Positions 2,765-62,377 of a stretch of 64,000 nt of DNA are shown here, in pieces. A model generated the notes under the pieces. It was not told the origin of the DNA and ran no database searches. It was given only the letters and a program-made list of their open reading frames with translations. The position numbers and the translations under genes are program-made. The stretch lies in assembly GCA_036002325.1 (NCBI GenBank), contig DASYTJ010000087.1:149188-213187 (forward strand), given 5' to 3'. This stretch comes from Thermoanaerobaculia bacterium (GTDB taxonomy: Bacteria > Acidobacteriota > Thermoanaerobaculia > Multivoradales > UBA5704). How positions within the stretch are numbered: the first letter of the stretch is position 1; each line of letters opens with the position of its first letter.

Positions 2765-5275
<2,511 letters not shown>

Positions 5276-20609: not shown

Positions 20610-21372
20610 TCAGACCTTCGCCAGCGTCGCCTGCATCACCTCGTAGCTCCTCAGCTCGTGCTGCAGGAAATGCCGCCGCACGTGAGCGCAGAGGTTCTCG
20701 ATCTCGTGCAGCACGGCGGCCGGAGGCACCCGCTTTGCCACAGCCGGCAGGCTCTCATGGCTGATGCGGCGCAGGAACTCCAGCGACGCGGGAGAGACCG
20801 CGAAACCGCTGCGGCCGCCGCAGTCCAGGCACAGCAGCATCTCTCCGGAGCGCGGCAGCATGGCTCCCTCCGGCGGGAACGGCGAGCCGCAGGAGGGACA
20901 CGCCTCGGGCGCGGGGAAGATCCCCGCCAGCCGCAGCATCCAGGCCTCGAAGTAGCGGGCGGCGAGATCGCGGTCCACCCCGGCCAGCAAGGCTTGCACG
21001 GTGGCGTCGAGCAGCCGGTAGAAGTGGTCGGAGGCCTCCCCCTCCTGCGCGAACTCCAGCAGGTGGTCGGCGAGATAGCTGCCGAGCAGGATCCCTTCGA
21101 GGTCCGTCTGCAGCGGATGGGCCGTGCGCACCAGCTCCACGGAGGAGATCCGCGACAGGTCCCTCCCCTCCTTCTCGAACCAGGTCACCTGCGCCTTGGC
21201 GAGCGGCTGGAGCTGGCCGCCGAAGCGGCTGTGCTTCACTCGCGCGCCTTTCGCCACCCCCTTCTTCTTGCCGTGCTCGCGGGTGAGAAAGGTGACGATG
21301 CGGTCGCGATCGTAGAGGTCCGTTACGTCGAGGATCAGCGCCTCGGCGGTCTGCAAAGCCATCGCGTGCATG
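20610..21372 (-). CDS. recO: DNA repair protein RecO
   Basis: C-terminal 250-253 codons of ORF 20610..21962: M(HAM)ALQTAEALILDVTDLYDRDRIVTFLTREHGKKKGVAKGAR matches the RecO N-terminus, and a Zn-finger CxxC...CxxC region is present. The upstream 200 codons of the same open frame lie in the repeat array and are probably not coding. Confidence 0.8.
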
Positions 21373-21479
21373 CTAGCACAAGGCGCCGGCCGGAATCGGG
21401 TAAGTTGTTGATTCAGAGGAACTAATCCAGGGATTACGACACCTGCCGCCGCCTCCGGCGGACGGTCTGACGGAGCCGG

Positions 21480-21880
21480 CGCACGGTCCACCCGCGACGG
21501 CGCACCATGCAACGGGGCCGCCAGCACGTGCAACGGCGCCGTTGTACCGTGCGCCGGAGGCGGCGGTAGGCGCGCCGGCGCCGTTGCGCCGTCCGCCGGC
21601 TGCCTCGCACCGGCCAACGGACTCCTCGCACCGTCGGCCGGTCCCCTCGCGCCATGCAAGGCCTCCGTTGCCCCGTGCGAGGGAGCCGTTGCACCGTGTA
21701 AGGGAGCCGTTGCACCGCGCGAGGAAGGCCTCGCACGGCGCGAGGAACCCCGTGGGCGTTGCCACCGCTCCCTTGCACCGTGCGAGGCATCCGTTGCGCT
21801 CTGCGAGGGACCCGTCGGACGTTGCGAGCGGTCCGTTGGGCCGCTCAAGGCAGCCGTCGCTCCGTACAAGGCAAAGGTCC
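21480..21880. repeat. Array of ~15 degenerate 21-bp units (consensus CCGTTGCACCGTGCGAGGGAG) in both orientations, including near-palindromes
   Basis: Read directly. Forward tandem units run at 21661-21876, each starting CCGT(T/C)G and ending GCGAGGRAG or CAAGG. Reverse-oriented units (GCACCATGCAACGG, GCACGTGCAACGG, CCTCGCACCGGCCAACGG...) lie at 21501-21660. A near-palindrome GCACGTGCAACGGCGCCGTTGTACCGTGC sits at 21524-21552. Confidence 0.8.
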
Positions 21881-21949
21881 AGCGCCGGTGACGCAGGAAC
21901 CTTGACTGAAACTTGCAAGGGAGCCCGCCGGCTAGATACGCTTTCGCTA

Positions 21950-22318
21950 GTGGAAGAACCACCGGCTCATGCGCTCGATTTCCTGAAAAGGGCGATCCAG
22001 GCCCTCGGCTTCACCCAGAGGGAAGTGGAACGCCAGTTGGGGCTGTCGCGGGGCTATCTCTCCCGGCTGTTCAGGGGTCGGATCGAGCTCAAAACGGATC
22101 ACGTGGTGCAGATCGCCAGAGCGCTCCAGGTGGATCCCAACGAGTTCTACCGGCTGGCGTTCCGGAAGTCCATCGGCGAGCCCTACAGGGAAACTCAGCG
22201 CCTGCAACAGACGACCGGTCTCCTGGCTCCGGAGCCGTCGCCCGAGGAGCTCGCGGAGATCCAGAAGGACATCGAACGGATCGTGAAGCGGGCGCTCGAC
22301 AGAAAGCAGGGATCGTGA
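21950..22318 (+). CDS. XRE-family helix-turn-helix transcriptional regulator
   Basis: HTH_3-like segment ALDFLKRAIQALGFTQREVERQLGLSRGYLSRLFRGRIELKTDHVVQIARALQVDPNEFYRL. Taken from an in-frame GTG start at 21950. The ORF is open upstream to 21542 through the repeat array, so the start is uncertain. Confidence 0.5.
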   Translation: MEEPPAHALDFLKRAIQALGFTQREVERQLGLSRGYLSRLFRGRIELKTDHVVQIARALQVDPNEFYRLAFRKSIGEPYRETQRLQQTTGLLAPEPSPEELAEIQKDIERIVKRALDRKQGS

Positions 22319-22366
22319 AGCTGCCCTGCGATTGGGCCAGCGTTTCTGGAGATTGCCGGCATCGCT

Positions 22367-23743
22367 CTACTCCTCCCACGCCCGCGCCTCGAAACGCAGG
22401 TTGGGGCCGAAGTCCGCGTGCCACCGCAGGAAGTCCGCCACCTCCAGCACCTTGGCCACCGTGGCGGTCCGCATCCGGAAGGCGTCGCGCAGCAGGATGA
22501 CCGCCTGCAGGGCCTCGCGCTGGATTTCGAGCGTCGAGAACAGCGTGGCCGCTTCGGTGGCGAGATGCTCCGCCTCCCTCCCCCTCCCTTGGGCAAGGAG
22601 AGAAGCCGTGAGGTCGAGCATGGCGATGCCGGCGAAAACCGAAAGGCCAGCCTGGGCATACCCTTCCCGTACCTCGCGGAACAAGGCCTCCGCCCGCTGG
22701 TAGCCGCCCTCGCCAAAGGCGATGCGCGCCTCCAGATGCCGAAACTTGATCCGATTGATACGCCCTCCGGGATGCAACAGGCGGCGGGAGTGGAGGAGCC
22801 GGTGCTTCTTCGCTTCCGCGATGCGGCCGCTGTCCACCAAATAGAGGATGAGATTGTGGGCGGCGGCGCAGGCGAGGCCGGGATCGCGCTCCGTGTCGAT
22901 CATCTCCAGGCTCTGCTTCTGGCGCTGGACGGCGAGATCGAAGCGGCCTTCGAGATAGGCGTAAACGCCGAGCTTGACCAGCGTGTAGCCGACGAGGTGC
23001 CGGTCGCCCCGCCCTTGATGGAAGGTGAGCATCTGGTGGAGCTTCTGCGTGGCGGGGCCGAAACTCCCGCGCTGAGCCAGCAAGGTGGCTTCGAACTCCA
23101 GGAGCCGCATCTCCAGCAGGCGGTCGCCGGTGCCCTGCTCGAAGAGGTGCCGGGCATCCCCCAGGAATTCGCGCGCGTCGCCGAACCGGCTGGTCACGCG
23201 GCAGGCGTTGCCGAGGTCGGCGTAGGCCCGGGCCTGGAGGTCGCACCTCAAGGGCCGGCCGTAGATGGCCTCGTCCAACCGAAAGGAAGCCACCACTCCC
23301 TGCTCGGCGAGCTCGATCATCCGCGCAGGGTCCTCGAAGCGGAGCTGCCAGCTCCGGTCGAGCAAGGCCCACATGCGAGCCAGGGGTTGCATGGCGCGGG
23401 GGAGCTTGCGGCCGGCGGCGAGGAGCTTCAGGCACCGGTCTGCCTCCGCCCGCTGCTCCCGCAGATGGCGGGCGAGCGCCAGCGGTTTCGCGGCCGCCCG
23501 CTCGATGACGGCCTCATACGCGGCCCCCTCTTCCGGGGTAGGCCGCCGCGCCGGCGCCAGGCCCAGCAGCGTGGTGAGCGCCGGCGGCAGCGAGGCGAGG
23601 CACGCCGGGCACCGCGCGAACAGGAGGTGGCGCACGACCTCTTTCTCCCGGCTCGGCGGCAGGCGTTCCTGGCCGAGAGCCGACAGCTCCTCACCGCTCG
23701 GGTGCTCCGATCCTCTGGTCTTCACTGGGGAGACTATTATCAC
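22367..23743 (-). CDS. TPR-like repeat protein
   Basis: 458 aa of helical repeat-like sequence with multiple LxxAxxxxG/AY patterns. It is convergent with the XRE gene. The minus ORF 22089..23435 and the + ORF 22418..24346 overlapping it are shadows. Confidence 0.5.
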   Translation of the reverse strand: MIIVSPVKTRGSEHPSGEELSALGQERLPPSREKEVVRHLLFARCPACLASLPPALTTLLGLAPARRPTPEEGAAYEAVIERAAAKPLALARHLREQRAEADRCLKLLAAGRKLPRAMQPLARMWALLDRSWQLRFEDPARMIELAEQGVVASFRLDEAIYGRPLRCDLQARAYADLGNACRVTSRFGDAREFLGDARHLFEQGTGDRLLEMRLLEFEATLLAQRGSFGPATQKLHQMLTFHQGRGDRHLVGYTLVKLGVYAYLEGRFDLAVQRQKQSLEMIDTERDPGLACAAAHNLILYLVDSGRIAEAKKHRLLHSRRLLHPGGRINRIKFRHLEARIAFGEGGYQRAEALFREVREGYAQAGLSVFAGIAMLDLTASLLAQGRGREAEHLATEAATLFSTLEIQREALQAVILLRDAFRMRTATVAKVLEVADFLRWHADFGPNLRFEARAWEE

Positions 23744-23863
23744 ATACGCGGAAGCGAAGGACCAGAGATTCCCGAAAGGGGGGCCCTACTCCGGAGCGCC
23801 GGCCCCGGCCGCTTCGGCCAGGGGGGCCGGGACTCGGCGCTCCGATGGAAATCTCCAGGCCGC

Positions 23864-24172
23864 CTACCCTTGGGGGTCCGTTGCGCTCGTCGAGCTCGTG
23901 GGCGGAGGTTGGGGCGTCGACGTGGCGCTGGAACAGCCACCGGCGGGATCAATTACCGGACCACATTTTTGCATCGGAGGTGGGATGCCGCCCGGCTCCA
24001 CAGGCCCGCCGGTCCCCGGCCAGAGCTGAGCGATCCATTCCAAAGCTCTTTCGAACCAGCCAGGGCCGGTCGTCAGGTCCCTCCAGCCGTCGGCGTGAGC
24101 GGGCGCGGCGAGTGCGAGGACGGCCGCGAGGGCCAGTACGGCGGCGGCGCGCCGGATGCGTTGCAGGTCCAT
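23864..24172 (-). CDS. Small secreted hypothetical protein with a Pro/Ser/Thr-rich tail
   Basis: MDLQRIRRAAAVLALAAVLALAAPAHA|DG... has a signal peptide with an AHA-DG cleavage site. The ATG is preceded by AAGGAGAGGAGAG. Confidence 0.4.
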   Translation of the reverse strand: MDLQRIRRAAAVLALAAVLALAAPAHADGWRDLTTGPGWFERALEWIAQLWPGTGGPVEPGGIPPPMQKCGPVIDPAGGCSSATSTPQPPPTSSTSATDPQG

Positions 24173-24474
24173 CTCTCCTCTCCTTCTGACCGTGGGCCGG
24201 CCGGGAGCCGCCATGGCGCCGACGCCCGCGGCCGTAACAGCCTAGTGTGGCCAACGCTCTCCAGTGTGGCACGGGTGGAAGAATTTCGGGCGCAGGGCGT
24301 ACGAATCTCGTACGCTCACCGCCTCGCCGGCTCCGCTGGAGCATGACCATGAGAGTCGGCGCCGCGACGCCTACGGCAATCAATTCCGCTTCCAGTCGGC
24401 TGCGAAGCTGAAGGTGTTGAGGCCGGCAGGACTAAGGAGCCGTTGTAGGAACCAGGGCTCTTCGACGGGAGCTC

Positions 24475-25764
24475 TCAGTGCTCGTCGAGCTTCTTGCCGT
24501 CCTTCTTCAATTGGGGGTGCTGAAGGAAGGTGGGCTGATCCTCATCGATGACCGTGCGGACTTCGCTGAGGGGAATCGTGAACTTCTCCGGCTCGACCGG
24601 TATGTTGGTTTCAAGACTCTTGACCATGAAGTGGAGGCTGATCATGCGCTTGCCATCATCATCCAATCCCGTCAGGTAAATGTGATGAGGAAATGGATAG
24701 GTGCTGCCTTTGACGCGGAGATAGCGCGTAAAATCAACAACCCGAAAGACCTTACCTCCGGGCCGGACGTACTCGATCTTCGAGACGAGATCACGGTTCG
24801 GCAGGATCGTCACTCGGTAATAGAAGGGACGGCCTTGGAGATCCCCTCCCGGGAGGATCAACTTTCCTTCCTCGCCTTTCTTCACCACGCCTCGCGCCTC
24901 GCCGACCCGCGCTTGCCACCGCGTCTCGTCGGCGATGGCGTCGAGAGTCAACTCACAGGCCGGGCAGCTATCTCCCTCTGGGCTCAGGAAAGCCACCGGG
25001 AGATAAAGGGGATTCATGAAGGGCGCGGGAACCTGAGTTGGAGGCTCTCTGTAAAGCGAGAGTCTGGAATCGGCTTCGAACAGGAGCTGATAGCGCTCTC
25101 CGTCGTACGCCGATACGAGTCCTGAAGCCAGACCGAGCCGCGCGTCCGCCGTCGACCGCGAGCGGTACTTCTGGCCCTCCAGCCAATACTCGAACGCGCC
25201 TTCACCCGTTCGATGAGGGAAGTTGAGCCAGACTCCGGCCTCCAAGTGGGCGGCACGGAGGTTTTTATAAAAACCCCGCAGCCGGTCCAGCGTTCCCTGA
25301 TAGCGGCCGGCAAGCTCGCGGCTGCCCTCTTCTGGAAGGTAGAGGGGCTCGGGCTGGCGTGGGACCTGGGATCGCAAAGCCTTGTCGGCATTCAGCATTT
25401 GGTTCAGCTCGGACACCGAATACTCGCAAGGGACGCCGCCTCCTGCCGGTCCACAGTCGCAAGCTCCCCCGCCTCCCCCGGCTGTATCGTCGCAGACACT
25501 CGCACCCAAGAGGTTTCCACAGGCACAACGGAGAATCATGTAGCAGCTGACCGTCCCGCACGCCCCCCCCGTGTTCCAGCCCGAATCCGTATTCGCGAGA
25601 AGGGAGAGAGGCCTCAGACTTGTAGGAATGGCGAGGCAATCCGCCTCCGTAGGGTCGGTGCAGGTTGTCAGGGCTGTGTGGCACTGATAGGGGAGAGCCA
25701 GAACGGGAAGGAGTAAGAAAGCTGCCCCCAAAATGGTGGATTTCGCCCAGCGAGCTTTCGCCAT
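24475..25764 (-). CDS. Secreted Cys-rich hypothetical protein
   Basis: 429 aa with a signal peptide and an N-terminal Cys/Gly-rich segment (CGTVSCYMILRCACGNLLGASVCDDTAGGGGGACDCGPAGGGVPCEY). No confidently recognisable domain. Confidence 0.5.
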   Translation of the reverse strand: MAKARWAKSTILGAAFLLLPVLALPYQCHTALTTCTDPTEADCLAIPTSLRPLSLLANTDSGWNTGGACGTVSCYMILRCACGNLLGASVCDDTAGGGGGACDCGPAGGGVPCEYSVSELNQMLNADKALRSQVPRQPEPLYLPEEGSRELAGRYQGTLDRLRGFYKNLRAAHLEAGVWLNFPHRTGEGAFEYWLEGQKYRSRSTADARLGLASGLVSAYDGERYQLLFEADSRLSLYREPPTQVPAPFMNPLYLPVAFLSPEGDSCPACELTLDAIADETRWQARVGEARGVVKKGEEGKLILPGGDLQGRPFYYRVTILPNRDLVSKIEYVRPGGKVFRVVDFTRYLRVKGSTYPFPHHIYLTGLDDDGKRMISLHFMVKSLETNIPVEPEKFTIPLSEVRTVIDEDQPTFLQHPQLKKDGKKLDEH

Positions 25765-25982
25765 GGCTCATCTCCCTGTGATCAACAGAGGAAGCTTTGC
25801 GTGTTTCCACAACTTTGTCAAGTCTGTAATCGCCTGGGTAGTGCGCGGTTTTGAAATCGGGACCTCTTCCCCTCAACGGCCCCGTGGGCTAGCGTGATCC
25901 CAGGCGGAATGAACCGCCAAGCGGCCCCGGCACGGGACGGAACCCCGCACCGGAGCCTGACCCGGACAGGAGGACACGCCCC

Positions 25983-26399
25983 ATGCCCGAGCTAGCAGCA
26001 CAGTCTATCGCCTCAACCCGCATCCTGCCGCCGCCCGCCCGCTACCCCTACACCGGATGGGAGACGGCCTGCGTCTTCAGGGAGACGTTCCTTTCCTGGC
26101 TGACGCCGCCCGGAGCCGCCAACGCCTTCCGGACGGTCGGCAATCTGTTCTTCGACCTAATGCTGAATGCCGACGACTGGCCGATGCCCTCGGAGTCGCC
26201 TGTCCGGCGCGAGCTGCGCGCCGCCGCTCAGGATCTCCGTTTCGTCCAGGGCTGGCTGGCGACGGCCCTGGAGACGAACGACATGAAGCAGATGCACCCG
26301 GAGGACGCGTACTTCCTGCGGCTCGCGGGACGACTCGCCCCGCAGGTCGGCCGCATCGCCGCCACGATCGAAACCGCGCTCGGGGAGGAACTGCGATGA
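25983..26399 (+). CDS. Hypothetical protein (transposon cargo 1)
   Basis: 138 aa, preceded by CAGGAGGA about 9 nt upstream. Its stop overlaps the next ORF start (ATGA). Confidence 0.4.
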   Translation: MPELAAQSIASTRILPPPARYPYTGWETACVFRETFLSWLTPPGAANAFRTVGNLFFDLMLNADDWPMPSESPVRRELRAAAQDLRFVQGWLATALETNDMKQMHPEDAYFLRLAGRLAPQVGRIAATIETALGEELR

Positions 26400-26632
26400 G
26401 TTGGGCCAGCAAACCGAGCTACCCGCATGACGCCTTGAACACGCTTACGATACGGGCGACCGACCGCCAACTCGCGAACTGGACGATGGAAGCGAAGCGC
26501 ACCGGCAGGGCTCGCGGCGCCGCAATCGCCTACCTCGCGGATCTCGGCTGCACGTTTCTCCAGGCGTGGCGGGACACCAACTACGATTGGGCCTGCGCTA
26601 TGGAGCAAGGCCCGATCACGAAGCACGACTGA
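26396..26632 (+). CDS. Small ribbon-helix-helix-like protein (cargo 2)
   Basis: 78 aa. NTLTIRATDRQLANWTMEAKRTG-RARGAAIAYLADLG fits a beta-strand / helix / helix RHH layout. It is translationally coupled to cargo 1. Confidence 0.35.
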   Translation: MSWASKPSYPHDALNTLTIRATDRQLANWTMEAKRTGRARGAAIAYLADLGCTFLQAWRDTNYDWACAMEQGPITKHD

Positions 26633-27062
26633 TTCAGGGACGGGCGGCATCTTCGGGTGCCGCCCGTGTTACCATCGAAGCCATGGAACACGACCCCGCC
26701 ATCCGCCCGAAGCGCCCCCGCGACCCGTTCAAGGCGGCTCACGAGATCTTCCGGGAAGCTATCGGCGAGAAGCCGCGCACCGAACCCCGCCCCAAGAAGC
26801 GCCCTTCCTCAAAGAAGCCCGCCGGCAAGCCTGAGTCGAACCGTAACACGGCCTGACGTTTTTTGGCTCCCCGAGTGTCTTGAAAACCTGACTTAGGTGG
26901 TATAATCGCGCCGTAAAAGCAGGGCGGGGCCGCCCGCGTGGGGCGGGCGGTTCCCTAAAACTTGTGGCGCAGCTCCCTCGGACCGAGGGATGGAAGTCGT
27001 GGACGCCTTCCATCCTGCCAAAAATCACTGCTCCGAGTCAAGAGCCGGAAAGGAGCAGTACT

Positions 27063-27395
27063 ATGTCAGTTTCCTGGTTAGGCTATGACTTCGATGTCTA
27101 CGACCCCCTAACAACCACGTGGAACGACGTGGGCGGCGTCTACATTTTCGCCGGCACAAACCACCAGAACGAATGGGCTCCCCTGTACATTGGACAGGCG
27201 GACAGCTTCCACAATCGCATCCCATGCCATGAAAGGTGGGCCGAGGCGGCGCTGCTGGGGGCCACCCATGTTCACGCGATGACGGTTCCGCAGGCGGCCA
27301 ACCGGGCAAGGATCGAGCATGAATTGTGTTTGGCCTATCAGCCGCCTTTGAATACCCAGCTTCGTTCGTTGGCCGGCTTCCGTCGCGGGGCGTAA
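27063..27395 (+). CDS. GIY-YIG-like nuclease-domain protein (cargo)
   Basis: 110 aa. GVY...(14)...YIG, then R 8 residues later, then an IEHE..N signature. AGGAG lies 8 nt upstream. An AT-rich consensus promoter TTGAAA-N17-TATAAT sits at ~26879-26907 upstream. Confidence 0.45.
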   Translation: MSVSWLGYDFDVYDPLTTTWNDVGGVYIFAGTNHQNEWAPLYIGQADSFHNRIPCHERWAEAALLGATHVHAMTVPQAANRARIEHELCLAYQPPLNTQLRSLAGFRRGA

Positions 27396-27497
27396 TTCGG
27401 AAGTAGGTAAGCGTTTCCTGGAGCCGCTGAAGAGTCGCAAGCTCTCCGTCACTCTGCGGCTCCAGGCACAGTGCGCGCCGCCGCCAATACACGCGCA

Positions 27498-28454
27498 TTA
27501 CGCCGCCTCCCTCTGTTGTTTCTTGTATGGCCCGCGCTTCCTCCCGGTCACGGTATCGGGTAGAAGCGCGACCATTTCCTCAACACTCCACAGGTGCGCC
27601 GTCACCCCCGCCGCCATGGCCGGGGTGACGCGGAGGGAGCGGTGGATGCGCACGTAGTTGTAGTGGAACGTGAAAAGCCCGAACGCCGCGACGTGGTTCC
27701 GCAGCATCTTGGAGAAACCGTTCGTGAGGCGGGTGTAGCGGCGCATCATCATCCGCACCGTCAGGTTGCTCCGCTCCACTAGGGACGTGCTGATAGCGGA
27801 CTTGTCGGGATCTCCGGTGATGACCGCCTTCATCTGCCGGACGCACGGCTGCGGGCTGTAGCGGTGGTCGGGATCGGGCGGACCGGCCTTGAACTCCTTC
27901 ACGAGCTGCGCGAAGTCCACCTCGGAGCCAAACGCCGTTTCGACCGCTTCCAGGTACATGCGGTGTCCGTCCGTCACCAGCATAACGCGGTGCGCGAGCC
28001 GAGAGGCGAGGTCGCGCATGAATACCGTTGCATGCTCCGCGTCCCGGTGGCCGATGTGGAAGGCCGGGATCAGCTTCGACACCGGGTCAACGGCGGTGAA
28101 GGCCCACAGATCGCCGTAACCGAGGACGCCAACGTTCTCGGGCCGGACATTCTTCGCCTTGCAGCGGCAGAACGCCCAAATCTCGTCCACCTCCAGGCGG
28201 CGGCACTGGAGGCTCCGCAGGTTCTCGTCCATGTAGCGGATGCACTCTTCTCCCAGGTCCAAGCCGAGCTTTGCTACCGCATCGTAGGAGACACCCACCA
28301 GACGGGACGTGGCGCGGAGAGAATTCCCCTCGCACAGAGCCGCAGCGATGGCGGCGCGCTTTGCCGGTTTGAGGACGTTCGCCACGGCCAGAATTTTACA
28401 GCTAAGCCTATGAAAAATCAAGGACTTAGGCCGAAAAATCGGGAGGATTTTCAA
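27498..28454 (-). CDS. IS1-family transposase (fused InsA-InsB type)
   Basis: 318 aa. The N-terminal HTH resembles InsA (RAAIAAALCEGNSLRATSRLVGVSYDAVAKL). The DDE region resembles InsB (RLEVDEIWAFCRCKAKNV...LVTDGHRMYLEAVETAF). The gene starts 43 bp inside the right IR (IR inner end 28497). Confidence 0.85.
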   Translation of the reverse strand: MKILPIFRPKSLIFHRLSCKILAVANVLKPAKRAAIAAALCEGNSLRATSRLVGVSYDAVAKLGLDLGEECIRYMDENLRSLQCRRLEVDEIWAFCRCKAKNVRPENVGVLGYGDLWAFTAVDPVSKLIPAFHIGHRDAEHATVFMRDLASRLAHRVMLVTDGHRMYLEAVETAFGSEVDFAQLVKEFKAGPPDPDHRYSPQPCVRQMKAVITGDPDKSAISTSLVERSNLTVRMMMRRYTRLTNGFSKMLRNHVAAFGLFTFHYNYVRIHRSLRVTPAMAAGVTAHLWSVEEMVALLPDTVTGRKRGPYKKQQREAA

Positions 28455-28624
28455 GGCTTCTTCTTGGCAAAAAGCGTGCCGAGATCGGTGCTTTAAATTT
28501 CAAAACCGCGCACTACCATCGCCTGCCCCCGTACGCCGCCGTACGAATCTCGTCTATCTCGCGGCCGCCGCTCTCCCGCGATTCGTACGTGCGCTAGACT
28601 TTGCCCCATCCGAGGAAGGCCGCC

Positions 28625-29596
28625 ATGGCTGTCAGCGAACCCATAGCTCCGATCTCCGCCGACGATCCGAACCGCGATCTCGGTTTCGGCGCCGTCGTCG
28701 TCCGCGAGAGCCGCAAGCGGCTGCTCAACCGGGACGGCAGCTTCAACGTCGTGCGCGAGGGCTTAAGCTTCTTCCAGACGCTCAGCCCCTACCACTTCCT
28801 CCTCACCACGTCCTGGCCGCGCTTTCTCGGGCTCATCGTCCTCTTCTTCCTGGTGACCAATACCGTCTTCGGGCTAGCCTACTTCGCCTGCGGCCCGGGA
28901 CAGATCGCGGGCTCGAATGCGACTCGCCTTCATAGTCAGTTCCTCGAGGACTTCTTCTTCAGCGTGCAGACCTTCGCCACCATCGGCTATGGGGGGATGC
29001 ATCCGGTCGGGCTGGCGGCAAACCTGCTGGTCACCCTGGAGTCGCTGGTGGGACTGTTGGGCTTCGCCCTCGCCACCGGCATCCTCTTCGCCCGCTTCTC
29101 GCAGCCGACGGCGAAGATCCTCTTCAGCAAGAACGCCATCATCGCTCCATACCGCGGCATCACCGCCTTCGAGTTCCGCATCGCCAACGCGCGGAGCAAC
29201 GAGATGATCCAGGTCGAGGCCCGCGTGCTGCTCAGCCGTTTCAGGCCCGACGGCGGCGGCAATCGCGATTTCATCCCTCTCAAGCTGGAGCGCGACAAGG
29301 TGGTGTTCTTCCCGCTCGCCTGGACCATCGTCCATCCCATCGACGAGGAGAGCCCGCTCTGGGGGGCCACTCGCGAGGACTTGAAGAATTGGGACGCGGA
29401 GTTCCTGGTGCTGCTCTCCGGGATCGACGAGACTTTCTCGCAGACGGTCCACACCCGCTCGTCCTACAAGGCCAGCGAGATCATCTGGGGCGCCCGCTTC
29501 GCGAACCTCTTCAACTCCCCGAAGCCGGACGGAACCCTGTCCATCGACGTCGGCCGGCTGCATCAGGTCGAGAAGGTGTTGCCGCCGGCGAGGTGA
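28625..29596 (+). CDS. Inward-rectifier-type (KirBac-like) potassium channel
   Basis: Two TM helices flank a pore loop with the TIGYG selectivity filter, plus a Kir-type cytoplasmic domain. ATG 28625 has GAGGAAGG upstream; an alternative ATG lies at 28601. Confidence 0.8.
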   Translation: MAVSEPIAPISADDPNRDLGFGAVVVRESRKRLLNRDGSFNVVREGLSFFQTLSPYHFLLTTSWPRFLGLIVLFFLVTNTVFGLAYFACGPGQIAGSNATRLHSQFLEDFFFSVQTFATIGYGGMHPVGLAANLLVTLESLVGLLGFALATGILFARFSQPTAKILFSKNAIIAPYRGITAFEFRIANARSNEMIQVEARVLLSRFRPDGGGNRDFIPLKLERDKVVFFPLAWTIVHPIDEESPLWGATREDLKNWDAEFLVLLSGIDETFSQTVHTRSSYKASEIIWGARFANLFNSPKPDGTLSIDVGRLHQVEKVLPPAR

Positions 29597-36489: not shown

Positions 36490-36550
36490 CGAACCCTCCT
36501 ATCTGGATCTCAATTCGTGATAGTTCAGTTGCTCGTTGGACTTCGGCGGG

Positions 36551-36716
36551 CATGCCCTCCGAAGCCTCACCCCCTGTCCCCCTCTCCCTGACGGGCGAGG
36601 GGGGACGCCCAGGAGGGCGATTGCCCAAAAAGTAGGCCCCCCTATCGGCAAGGAGGTTGTGGATCGTCCCCCCTCGCCCGTCAGGGAGAGGGGGACAGGG
36701 GGTGAGGCTTCGAAGC
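36551..36716. repeat. Long-armed palindromic repeat element, copy A (~50-bp arms, ~60-bp loop)
   Basis: Left arm CCCTCCGAAGCCTCACCCCCTGTCCCCCTCTCCCTGACGGGCGAGGGGGGA (36555-36605) and its reverse complement (36666-36714). A near-identical element lies at 62155-62352, with homologous loop sequences (GATTGCCnAAAAAGGTAGGCC). Confidence 0.8.
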
Positions 36717-36750
36717 GTAAACCCGTCCGCAGTCCCGATCCTACTGAATC

Positions 36751-37191
36751 CTAACTGCCATGTTGTGTCTCCAGGATCTCCCTTCCCTCTTCTCCCGCGA
36801 GCCGCGCCAGCTTCAGCGCCGCGGCGCCGGGCACCGCGAAGGGCAGGCGCTCGGCCCATTCCACCACCTTCACGCCGGGCCCGGCCAGCAGCTCCTCCAG
36901 GCCCAGCGCGGCGGCCTCCCCGGAGTCCAGCCGGTAGAGATCGACATGCACCAGACGCCCGCCCTTTCCCCGATGTTCGCGGATGAGGTTGAACGTGGGC
37001 GACTGCACCTCGCGGGGATCGATCCCCAGGCCTTCGCCGATTCCTCGTGTCAAGACCGTCTTACCGCTGCCCAGATCGCCCGAGAGCAGGAGGACGCCGT
37101 CCGGCGACAGCTCCCGCGCGAGGTCCATCCCCAGAGCGCGGGTCTCCTCTTCGCTGCGGGTAAGCCAGCGCCTCAAGGGCGCGCTCCTAAC
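36751..37191 (-). CDS. tsaE: tRNA threonylcarbamoyladenosine biosynthesis protein TsaE
   Basis: P-loop GDLGSGKT, SPTFNLIREH, and VHVDLYRL. A probable GTG start at 37191 abuts the nnr stop. The ORF-track start is 37230. Confidence 0.75.
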   Translation of the reverse strand, partial: VRSAPLRRWLTRSEEETRALGMDLARELSPDGVLLLSGDLGSGKTVLTRGIGEGLGIDPREVQSPTFNLIREHRGKGGRLVHVDLYRLDSGEAAALGLEELLAGPGVKVVEWAERLPFAVPGAAALKLARLAGEEGREILETQHGS

Positions 37192-60148: not shown

Positions 60149-60482
60149 GATGGGAGGGGCCGCGGCCCGGCGCAATCGTAGCACGGGGTAGCCGATCCCC
60201 AGGACCAGTCACATCGGCGGTTGCCGCGCCGCCGGCCCTCACCACCCCAACCCCTCCTCTCCCACCGCACACCCTTCCGCCGGGAGAGGAGGGGCTCTGA
60301 AAAAACAAACTTCATCCGTCTCCCTCCTCTCCCGGAGGGCGGGCGTGAGGTGGGAGAGGAGGGCCGGGGAGGTGAGGGGCCCGGCGGCGGGATAGCGCTA
60401 GAGGAGATCGACGACGGCCGAATCGGGCCAAAGGCAGCTCGGCCGGCCGCCGGGATACACTACCCGCTCAGGGAACCACACG

Positions 60483-62154: not shown

Positions 62155-62352
62155 TTCGGACCGGTATGCCCTCCGAAGCCCTCACCCCCTGTCCCCCTCT
62201 CCCTGACGGGCGAGGGGGGACCCGTCATAACCCGATTGCCGAAAAAAGGTAGCCTCGACCTCGGCGAGATCCCTTCGCATGCGTTCCCCCTCGCCCGTCA
62301 GGGAGAGGGGGACAGGGGGTGAGGCTTCGGAGGGCATGCGGGTCCGCAGTCT
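62155..62352. repeat. Long-armed palindromic repeat element, copy B
   Basis: Arms TCGGACCGGTATGCCCTCCGAAGCCCTCACCCCCTGTCCCCCTCTCCCTGACGGGCGAGGGGGGA and its reverse complement, with a single-base bulge. The loop is homologous to copy A. Confidence 0.8.
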
Positions 62353-62377
62353 TCGATCGAGCTGAACCACTACCTGC

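Follow-up and report, generated by a model that had tools for sequence, protein, structure and literature searches.

The region between recO and the gene of an XRE-family helix-turn-helix (HTH) protein in a Thermoanaerobaculia genome is filled by a tandem array of 21-bp units. The question raised by this locus is whether such DNA is translated, bound by a protein or simply repeated. The locus lies in a 64,000-nucleotide stretch of contig DASYTJ010000087.1 (assembly GCA_036002325.1), referred to below as the window. A sequence-only reading of the window had offered three possibilities: an operator or iteron-like array serving the XRE protein and an adjacent tetratricopeptide repeat (TPR) protein, a lineage-specific minisatellite, or a translated low-complexity extension of RecO or of the XRE protein. 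Our comparisons suggest that a conserved cis element, of which this array is the local copy, travels with a regulator family in Thermoanaerobaculia and related soil bacteria, usually accompanied by the genes of a TPR protein and of a small secreted protein. As to its role, we favour, with reserve, a phased protein-binding or architectural array of the XRE-TPR module, with sites two helical turns apart, that would be renewed by whole-unit slippage. A literature search found no description of such arrays.

Anatomy of the array

The recO-XRE intergenic region contains 20 units of 21 bp, which follow each other in a single register over 420 bp with zero indels (Table 1). The earlier count of about 15 units was too low, and the array does not reach position 21962, where an ATG had been read; the codon at 21962 is GTG and the last unit ends at 21874, 38 bp upstream of the putative XRE -35 element. 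The 21-bp tandem periodicity itself was borne out by two methods. Tandem Repeats Finder (TRF) reported a period-21 tract of 7.2 copies at 21665-21815 (consensus CCGTTGCACCGTGCGAGGGAG) and a second period-21 tract, of 3 copies, at 21589-21650. For lags of 21, 42 and 63 the autocorrelation of the array was 0.61-0.63, 0.59 and 0.57, respectively, compared with approximately 0.28 at other lags and with a maximum of 0.41 in 2000 shuffles (lags 5-59). The period is exactly 21 bp. The units are degenerate, with a mean pairwise identity of 57% against a background of 28%. Five matches to the consensus unit with at most 3 mismatches were observed, where 0.03 would be expected. The consensus had no match outside the array in the window, and it was absent from 600 kb of related loci, except for one site inside the homologous array of locus L043.

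The unit has the form CCGTTGCAC-C-GTGCGAGGG-AG, a quasi-palindrome of 9-1-9 layout followed by a 2-bp spacer, and its half-sites can be given as CCGTTGCAC and CCCTCGCAC around the central base. The units abut head to tail with the 2-bp spacer between them, and their information content is mirror-symmetric about position 10. The mixed orientation of the units noticed earlier is real: the XRE-proximal half of the array is mostly forward, the distal half mixed or reverse, and the register holds across the orientation switches. Part of the apparent mixture arises from the quasi-palindromic 9-1-9 structure of the unit itself. Because both unit orientations are present, pooling all units gives a consensus, CCGTCGCAC-C-GTGCGACGG, that is perfectly palindromic in the 9-1-9 layout (p = 0.001). 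In the distal block there are inverted arms of up to 66 nt, for example 21455-21520 with 21534-21599. The G+C content of the array is 74%, that of the flanks 60-66%. A CRISPR array was ruled out: the units are adjacent with 2-bp gaps, not set apart by unique spacers similar in length.

The array lies at the edge of an inserted island

Homology to the DNA upstream of recO in relatives stops at about 21381-21384. Beyond this point begins a lineage-specific island of approximately 7.2 kb, which separates recO from a Kir-type K+ channel gene (28601-29596) and has the array at its edge. In the closest relatives (L001, L002 and L004) the channel gene lies approximately 45 bp from the recO start codon, and the DNA of the island is absent. 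In other relatives the position is occupied by insertions that differ from the island and are 1.8-4.9 kb long, which marks the recO upstream site as an insertion hotspot. The island comprises the array, the XRE and TPR genes, genes for secreted proteins, orphan genes and an IS1-like transposase gene; Pfam and NCBIfam scans of the island genes identified HTH_3, TPR and IS1-like transposase only. As judged by these comparisons, the island is horizontally inserted, and the array belongs to it and is not a feature of the recO promoter. The sequence-only reading had remarked that such an array is unexpected in a recO promoter region; the insertion, placed just upstream of the conserved extended -10 element of recO, explains its presence. 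Homology to relatives resumes at this -10 element, so recO probably keeps its own promoter.

Among the island genes is one of lower GC content (24475-25764), whose product, a secreted protein of 429 aa, matched no family.

Arrays of period 21 or 42 accompany XRE homologues

XRE homologues were gathered from public proteins and from metagenome contigs, the latter scanned with an 11-sequence XRE alignment. Enough flanking sequence for the purpose was available at 22 XRE-homologue loci (informative loci). An array of period 21 or 42 was present within approximately 1.1 kb of the XRE homologue at 17 of these 22. The density of arrays was about one per 8 kb at XRE loci versus one per 110 kb in 441 kb of recO loci. 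In the window and at L042, L044, L067 and L079, probably also at L075 and L078, the array is directly upstream of the XRE promoter. At other loci it lies just beyond a small, divergently transcribed gene, and at L061 it is downstream of the XRE gene. The recurring order is array, small gene (optional) and XRE gene, with the TPR and small secreted protein genes following in the opposite direction.

All XRE-linked arrays found have a period of 21 or 42, despite their differing unit sequences. Unit types across the loci include the TTGCACnGTGCAA type, GGTGGACnGTCCACC, GGACCCGCGGGTCC, AACCCGCGGGTT, CACCGGCCGGTG, AACCGCGAA/TTCGCGGTT and CACGGCGACTTG, and many of the cores are palindromic, among them GGACCCGCGGGTCC, AACCCGCGGGTT and GGTGGACnGTCCACC. 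In a scan of approximately 0.62 Mb, periods were multiples of 3 only, apart from a few lag-20 segments, and lag 21 was dominant. The core ACCCGCGGGT is common to three XRE subfamilies that are only approximately 36-50% identical to the XRE protein of the window. Mixed orientation in one register was also seen at L075 and L009.

Comparison of related arrays revealed whole-unit changes. At L069 and L070 the flanking genes share 97-99.6% identity, and the two arrays differ in length by exactly one unit of 21 bp. The arrays also differ widely in age: the 42-bp repeats of L079 are 96% identical, the units of the window 57%.

Two neighbouring observations concern XRE homologues without such an array. 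L054 (1287-1328) is collinear with L069 (2962-3942) at 85-91% identity, apart from an indel cassette of approximately 980 bp that consists of the array and a divergent gene of 201 aa and has its left junction at the outer edge of the array; L054 keeps a single degenerate unit-like remnant (GATCGCGGTC). At L058 a REP-like hairpin cluster with a 41-bp period (GGGGCAGCGRCTGCCCC) is found downstream of the XRE homologue (4470-4740) and is distinct from the 21-bp arrays.

A phased multi-site platform as the preferred reading

A period of 21 bp corresponds to two turns of B-DNA, which would put all sites on the same face of the helix. The period is constant although the unit sequences are unrelated, the register survives the orientation switches, and arrays persist beside genes that have diverged to approximately 36% identity. 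These three features favour a constraint on double-stranded DNA. On our tentatively held reading, the near-palindromic sites with their 21-bp spacing would form a phased platform that a protein, as dimers or oligomers, would occupy cooperatively to give an extended nucleoprotein structure. Alternatively, the array would be an intrinsically curved segment. In either form it would regulate or insulate the adjacent module, and whole-unit slippage or recombination would renew it, the period being kept while the unit sequence drifts.

The binder could be the XRE protein, to which the adjacency points, possibly with the TPR protein as a bridge. Sequence comparison, as far as it goes, lends no support to direct recognition of the unit cores by the XRE protein: the cores differ widely, the recognition helix (S33-G43) hardly at all, and five different cores accompany an identical LSRGYLSRLF helix. 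We consider the XRE-TPR complex of the module, or some other factor, as candidate binders. The operator-like array proposed earlier for the XRE/TPR pair is supported in part, by the association at 17 of 22 loci and by the linkage of the XRE and TPR genes; recognition of the units by the XRE protein, which it implied, is not.

These helix data weigh against the platform, and further observations do so as well. A separate conserved palindrome, TTGAC-N7-GTCAA, is present at the XRE promoter. Taken array by array, dyad symmetry reaches significance in only some cases and is weak in several. Constraint per site must be weak in the window, because its units are degenerate. Constraint, which would speak for the platform, is indicated by the arrays of L069 and L066, whose identity is 88% at core positions against 62% elsewhere (p = 5e-7), but this contrast may be inflated by the alignment of non-orthologous units; overall, these two arrays are 74% identical, their neighbouring gene 91%, which means that the array diverges faster. 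Five XRE homologues (L049, L054, L058, L072 and L077) have no array, and four recO loci (L009, L016, L024 and L026) carry period-21/42 arrays with XRE-family genes absent from the surrounding 3 kb. One of the latter, at L009, has mixed orientation and lies between recO and glyQ, in a gap that is normally approximately 20 bp; another is AT-richer and has TCGAATTnnAATTCGA units. Since recO loci lacking the XRE gene carry them too, a clade-wide preference for 21-bp periodic arrays is suggested.

Among known systems, ARG boxes have the geometry of the array. They are 18-bp imperfect palindromes approximately 3 bp apart, thus approximately 21 bp from centre to centre, and are bound by hexameric ArgR. 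In both cases a near-palindrome of 18-19 bp and a spacer of 2-3 bp add up to 21 bp on one helix face. ARG boxes, however, are paired and overlap promoters, whereas the array has 20 sites upstream of the promoter and no ArgR-like gene nearby. Two-turn spacing is also known from XRE/Cro-C1 operators: the half-sites of the P2 C repressor are two helical turns apart (PMC1904263), and an Xre-RES 4:2 complex binds adjacent palindromes (PMC12204516). The array shares with these operators the adjacent XRE-HTH gene, the spacing and possibly a partner that bridges DNA-bound dimers. It differs from them in that they comprise 2-4 promoter sites matching the specificity of the repressor, whereas the cores of the arrays vary and the helix does not.

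A bolder version of the platform, which we think unlikely, would make the array the scaffold of an undescribed signalling module of Acidobacteriota. The module would be RRNPP-like, with a split XRE-HTH protein, a peptide-binding TPR receptor and a secreted pro-peptide, and the regulator complex would polymerize along 12-24 phased sites into a long filament, serving as an ultrasensitive switch or as an insulator at the island edge. In a wider sense, phased 21-bp palindrome arrays could then constitute a class of architectural DNA element shared across the Thermoanaerobaculia clade.

Alternative explanations

The alternative that survives best, though on the evidence we consider it somewhat doubtful, is a self-propagating minisatellite, or variable-number tandem repeat (VNTR), with no sequence-specific function, inherited with the XRE module. 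The unit would have arisen once, beside the ancestral XRE module, and then been expanded, contracted, inverted and homogenized by replication slippage and by template switching at the quasi-palindrome, with an inherited period and a drifting sequence. Much of the behaviour expected of a minisatellite, one of the possibilities raised by the earlier reading, was in fact observed: the whole-unit indel between the near-identical L069 and L070 strains, and arrays that are in part near-perfect and recent (L079), in part decayed (the window). The unit sequences vary greatly and do not follow the XRE helix, blocks of switched orientation are what template switching typically produces at quasi-palindromes, the array and the adjacent small gene form an indel cassette with its junction at the array edge, and the array evolves faster than the adjacent gene. 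Bacterial VNTR loci, such as those of the MIRU type, likewise have head-to-tail units, strain differences of whole units and a period divisible by 3. What a minisatellite leaves unexplained is the period of 21/42 in independent arrays away from XRE genes (L009, L016, L024 and L026), the retention of palindromic cores that are better conserved than the spacers, and the persistence beside a gene family diverged to 36% identity. The conserved partner regulator family across deep divergence, the constant 21-bp period and the dyad symmetry of the units set the array apart from VNTR loci.

An element acting in RNA or single-stranded DNA appears improbable. The array would be a transcribed series of stem-loops, similar to repetitive extragenic palindromic (REP) sequences and bacterial interspersed mosaic elements (BIMEs) or to an amplified terminator, which would stabilize or terminate the transcript of the small gene, or it would stem from REP-like mobilization. 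At many loci the array begins approximately 25-80 bp past the stop codon of the small divergent gene, the units could form stems of 5-8 bp, and both strands fold with z of about -7. REP/BIME repeats comprise GTAG- and CGTC-tagged families (PMC3733652), and both tags occur in the arrays, as CGTC...GACG in the all-unit consensus and as GTAG in the units of L042. Like the array, REP/BIME repeats are short, GC-rich intergenic palindromes, clustered or alternating, and often just 3′ of genes.

The folding data, however, do not fit this picture. The predicted fold depends on long-range pairing between the inverted blocks, not on unit hairpins, and is equally stable on both strands. Within units, 104 of 189 arm positions (55%) pair, compared with 110 expected from arms of different units; as arms of the same unit pair no better than arms of different units, selection for a hairpin is unlikely, and there is no within-unit covariation. 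REP/BIME repeats are maintained by a hairpin with an unpaired tag, whereas the CGTC of the consensus sits in a paired arm. They are dispersed in tens to thousands of copies; a search of approximately 130 kb of flanking DNA and of 600 kb of loci found no core outside the arrays, which argues against a dispersed REP-type family, and the array keeps a strict 21-bp register. In addition, the island has no RAYT gene, an Rfam scan of 21000-22400 gave nothing above threshold, and in the window there is neither a small gene nor an obvious promoter reading into the array.

Still less probable, in our view, is a reading in which a plasmid-like or mobile element has integrated and the units are its iterons or its partition centromere, their binder being an initiator or a centromere-binding protein from an island gene. 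Tandem sites two helical turns apart beside the gene of a small DNA-binding protein do resemble iteron and centromere arrays, and the array is at the very edge of a 7.2-kb island with a transposase. The gamma origin of R6K has seven contiguous 22-bp iterons and the lambda origin four dyad-symmetric iterons of 19 bp. With such systems the array shares tandem sites of 17-22 bp, spacing of about two turns, degeneracy and the adjacent small DNA-binding protein gene. It differs in having no initiator gene, no adjoining AT-rich unwinding element (the array is 74% G+C) and a chromosomal-island setting. Its 20 sites are three to five times the typical number, and there is no co-variation between unit sequence and neighbouring protein. 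The centromere sopC of F consists of twelve 43-bp repeats, each with an inverted repeat, and parC of pSK41 of 20-bp repeats. These, too, are long tandem arrays of inverted-repeat sites upstream of the gene of the binding protein, from which a filament or superhelix is expected, but the array has no plasmid context, and a partition NTPase was not found in the island or at the homologous loci. Domain scans of the island proteins revealed no Rep, ParA, ParM, TubZ, integrase or relaxase domain. The TPR protein had no match in 72,556 plasmids, a scan of viral contigs with the XRE alignment gave two distant HTH matches only, and the homologous modules are found in varied chromosomal contexts. Overall, the geometry of the array resembles that of iterons, ARG-box pairs, centromeres and multi-site XRE operators, yet the array lacks defining features of each and has many more sites than any.

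The least credible of the alternatives is a translated heptad-repeat protein, either an N-terminal extension of RecO or of the XRE protein or a separate low-complexity protein. The period is divisible by 3, and four of the six frames are open, among them the frames of recO and XRE; the earlier statement that all frames are open was too strong, since frame +1 has 3 stops and frame -0 has 2. The two in-frame open reading frames (ORFs) described earlier do exist (20610..21962 on the minus strand, 450 aa; 21542..22318 on the plus strand, 258 aa), and gene callers sometimes run ORFs into such arrays (L078 and L079). However, the RecO_N domain aligns from residue 1 of a 250-aa protein starting with the ATG at 21362. 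Close RecO orthologues from Thermoanaerobaculia metagenome-assembled genomes (MAGs) share this start residue, and the closest have only approximately 45 bp upstream of it. In 40 orthologous RecO loci the alignment likewise begins at residue 1, with no N-terminal heptad extension and no array upstream. The XRE protein is annotated with 122 aa, and its homologues have 114-142 aa.

The conservation pattern also opposes translation. Information content by codon phase was 0.84, 0.91 and 1.05, the third position being the most conserved rather than the most variable, and conservation of the unit is dyad-symmetric, not codon-periodic. The reading frame relative to the core varies among homologous arrays, some of which contain stops. 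Comparison of orthologous arrays showed a synonymous excess in no frame (maximum 0.32), in a test whose control on the neighbouring gene was weakly discriminating (0.40 versus 0.17 and 0.35). The translated open frames had no significant match in Pfam. Taken together, the orthologue, annotation, frame and conservation comparisons indicate that the array is non-coding, and the extension of RecO or XRE suggested earlier can be dismissed with little doubt.

In L078 (2283-2741) and L079 (1294-1707) metagenome gene calls traverse the arrays, and one of them lengthens a VapB-like antitoxin gene by approximately 60 repeat codons. The arrays therefore create spurious ORFs and extensions in automatic annotation, and in the window the long spurious ORFs can mislead gene callers at recO, XRE and their neighbours.

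The XRE gene, its promoter and its partners

A consensus scan for promoters and terminators found nothing, and putative promoter elements were deduced from conservation across loci, which suggests the pattern TTGCAA-N17/18-TAnnCT. In most homologous loci TAnACT or TACGCT is found 6-9 nt ahead of the start codon. The putative -10 element of the XRE gene is so near the start codon that a leaderless mRNA is implied. An imperfect palindrome overlaps the putative -35 element in the window (Table 1); its counterpart at homologous loci is the TTGAC-N7-GTCAA mentioned above, located over divergent promoters. This promoter palindrome is a better candidate for the XRE operator than the array.

Two side observations concern this region. 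recO and XRE both have a predicted -10 element approximately 7 nt before the start, a spacing common to most related loci and implying leaderless mRNAs. A sub-threshold Rfam match to the RT-19 small RNA (21934-22026, minus strand; 21.9 bits, gathering threshold 78.3, E = 0.12) covers the XRE start region and is probably due to chance.

The XRE and TPR genes are convergent neighbours in at least 13 loci, and in distant homologues the HTH and TPR domains are found in a single polypeptide. The fused homologues and the conserved adjacency argue, in Rosetta-stone fashion, for a functional link between the two proteins. The TPR family has approximately 100 members, mostly from Thermoanaerobaculia, three of which are paralogues in this MAG. 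Two of them, P0018 (VGX68_06600) and P0044 (VGX68_16290), are encoded on other contigs and are 72% and 64% identical; the module therefore appears to be present in several copies per genome. The predicted structure of the TPR protein (predicted local distance difference test, pLDDT, 91) is a superhelix of the peptide-binding type, with template modelling (TM) scores of approximately 0.45-0.53 to the TPR domains of LGN, Rap and NprR.

The XRE gene, the convergent TPR gene and the gene of a signal-peptide protein of approximately 110 aa form a conserved trio, found in the window (21950-24214), at L042, L046, L066, L069, L070 and at other loci. The small secreted protein of the trio has the motif W..WPG and a C-terminal DPxG. 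On the basis of the modelled fold and the gene order, the trio may be an RRNPP-like signalling module outside Firmicutes. Compared with RRNPP systems, HTH and TPR are encoded here by separate genes, although fused homologues exist, and the gene of a signal-peptide protein is adjacent.

Table 1. Positions of the array, of neighbouring features in the window and of arrays with no XRE-family gene nearby
Feature	Position	Strand	Remarks
recO, 250 aa	20610..21362	-	Start is ATG at 21362 (RecO_N, orthologues)
Conserved extended -10 of recO, TGCTAGCAT	21370-21378	-	7 nt upstream of ATG; conservation in relatives
Island edge: AT-richer junction and one marginal degenerate unit (21434-21454)	21385..21454	.
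Lineage-specific island, ~7.2 kb	~21385..28600	.	Between recO and Kir-type K+ channel gene; array at its edge
20-unit quasi-palindromic array	21455..21874	.	74% G+C; autocorrelation, unit identity, no indels
Distal block, 10 units, mixed/reverse (CCCTCGCACnGTGCAACGG type)	21455..21664	.
XRE-proximal block, 10 units, mostly forward (CCGTTGCACCGTGCGAGGGAG)	21665..21874	+	Pairwise identity 63.5%
Imperfect palindrome TTGAC-N7-TGCAA	21902..21918	+	Overlaps putative XRE -35 (TTGCAA, 21913-21918); cross-locus comparison
Putative XRE -10, TACGCT	21937..21942	+	18 nt past -35, 7 nt before GTG start; from homologous loci
XRE-family HTH gene, 122 aa, HEV8580851.1	21950..22318	+	HTH_3 at residues 12-66; NCBI annotation
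TPR protein gene, 452 aa (NCBI start), HEV8580852.1	22367..23725	-	Convergent with XRE gene
Small secreted protein gene, 116 aa, signal peptide	23864..24214	-	Homologues beside TPR gene in L042, L046, L066, L069
IS1-like transposase gene	27498-28454	-	End of island
Array lacking nearby XRE gene, L009	6760-7120
Array lacking nearby XRE gene, L016	10143-10381
Array lacking nearby XRE gene, L024	3814-4046
Array lacking nearby XRE gene, L026	9941-10219

Implications and additional observations

Were it to function as a platform, the array would represent an unusually long chromosomal case of helically phased multi-site recognition, with 12-24 sites. It is tied to an uncharacterized module of regulator, TPR protein and secreted protein, which is widespread and multi-copy in Thermoanaerobaculia, an abundant and little-studied soil lineage, and which may be more interesting than the array itself. 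A period of 21 or 42 combined with near-palindromic cores provides a sequence signature by which such modules can be found. Should the array turn out to be a minisatellite and nothing more, it would still serve as a clean VNTR marker by which strains in metagenomes can be told apart. A near-identical contig of the Joint Genome Institute (JGI; 144,840 bp, with proteins P0114 and P0115) exists.

Elsewhere in the window there are three self-complementary long inverted-repeat elements of approximately 160-220 bp (36538-36758, 62155-62377 and 60227-60389). The first two are approximately 78% similar and hold short CCTCTCCC / GGGACAGG repeats. All three may be palindromic elements resembling miniature inverted-repeat transposable elements (MITEs).

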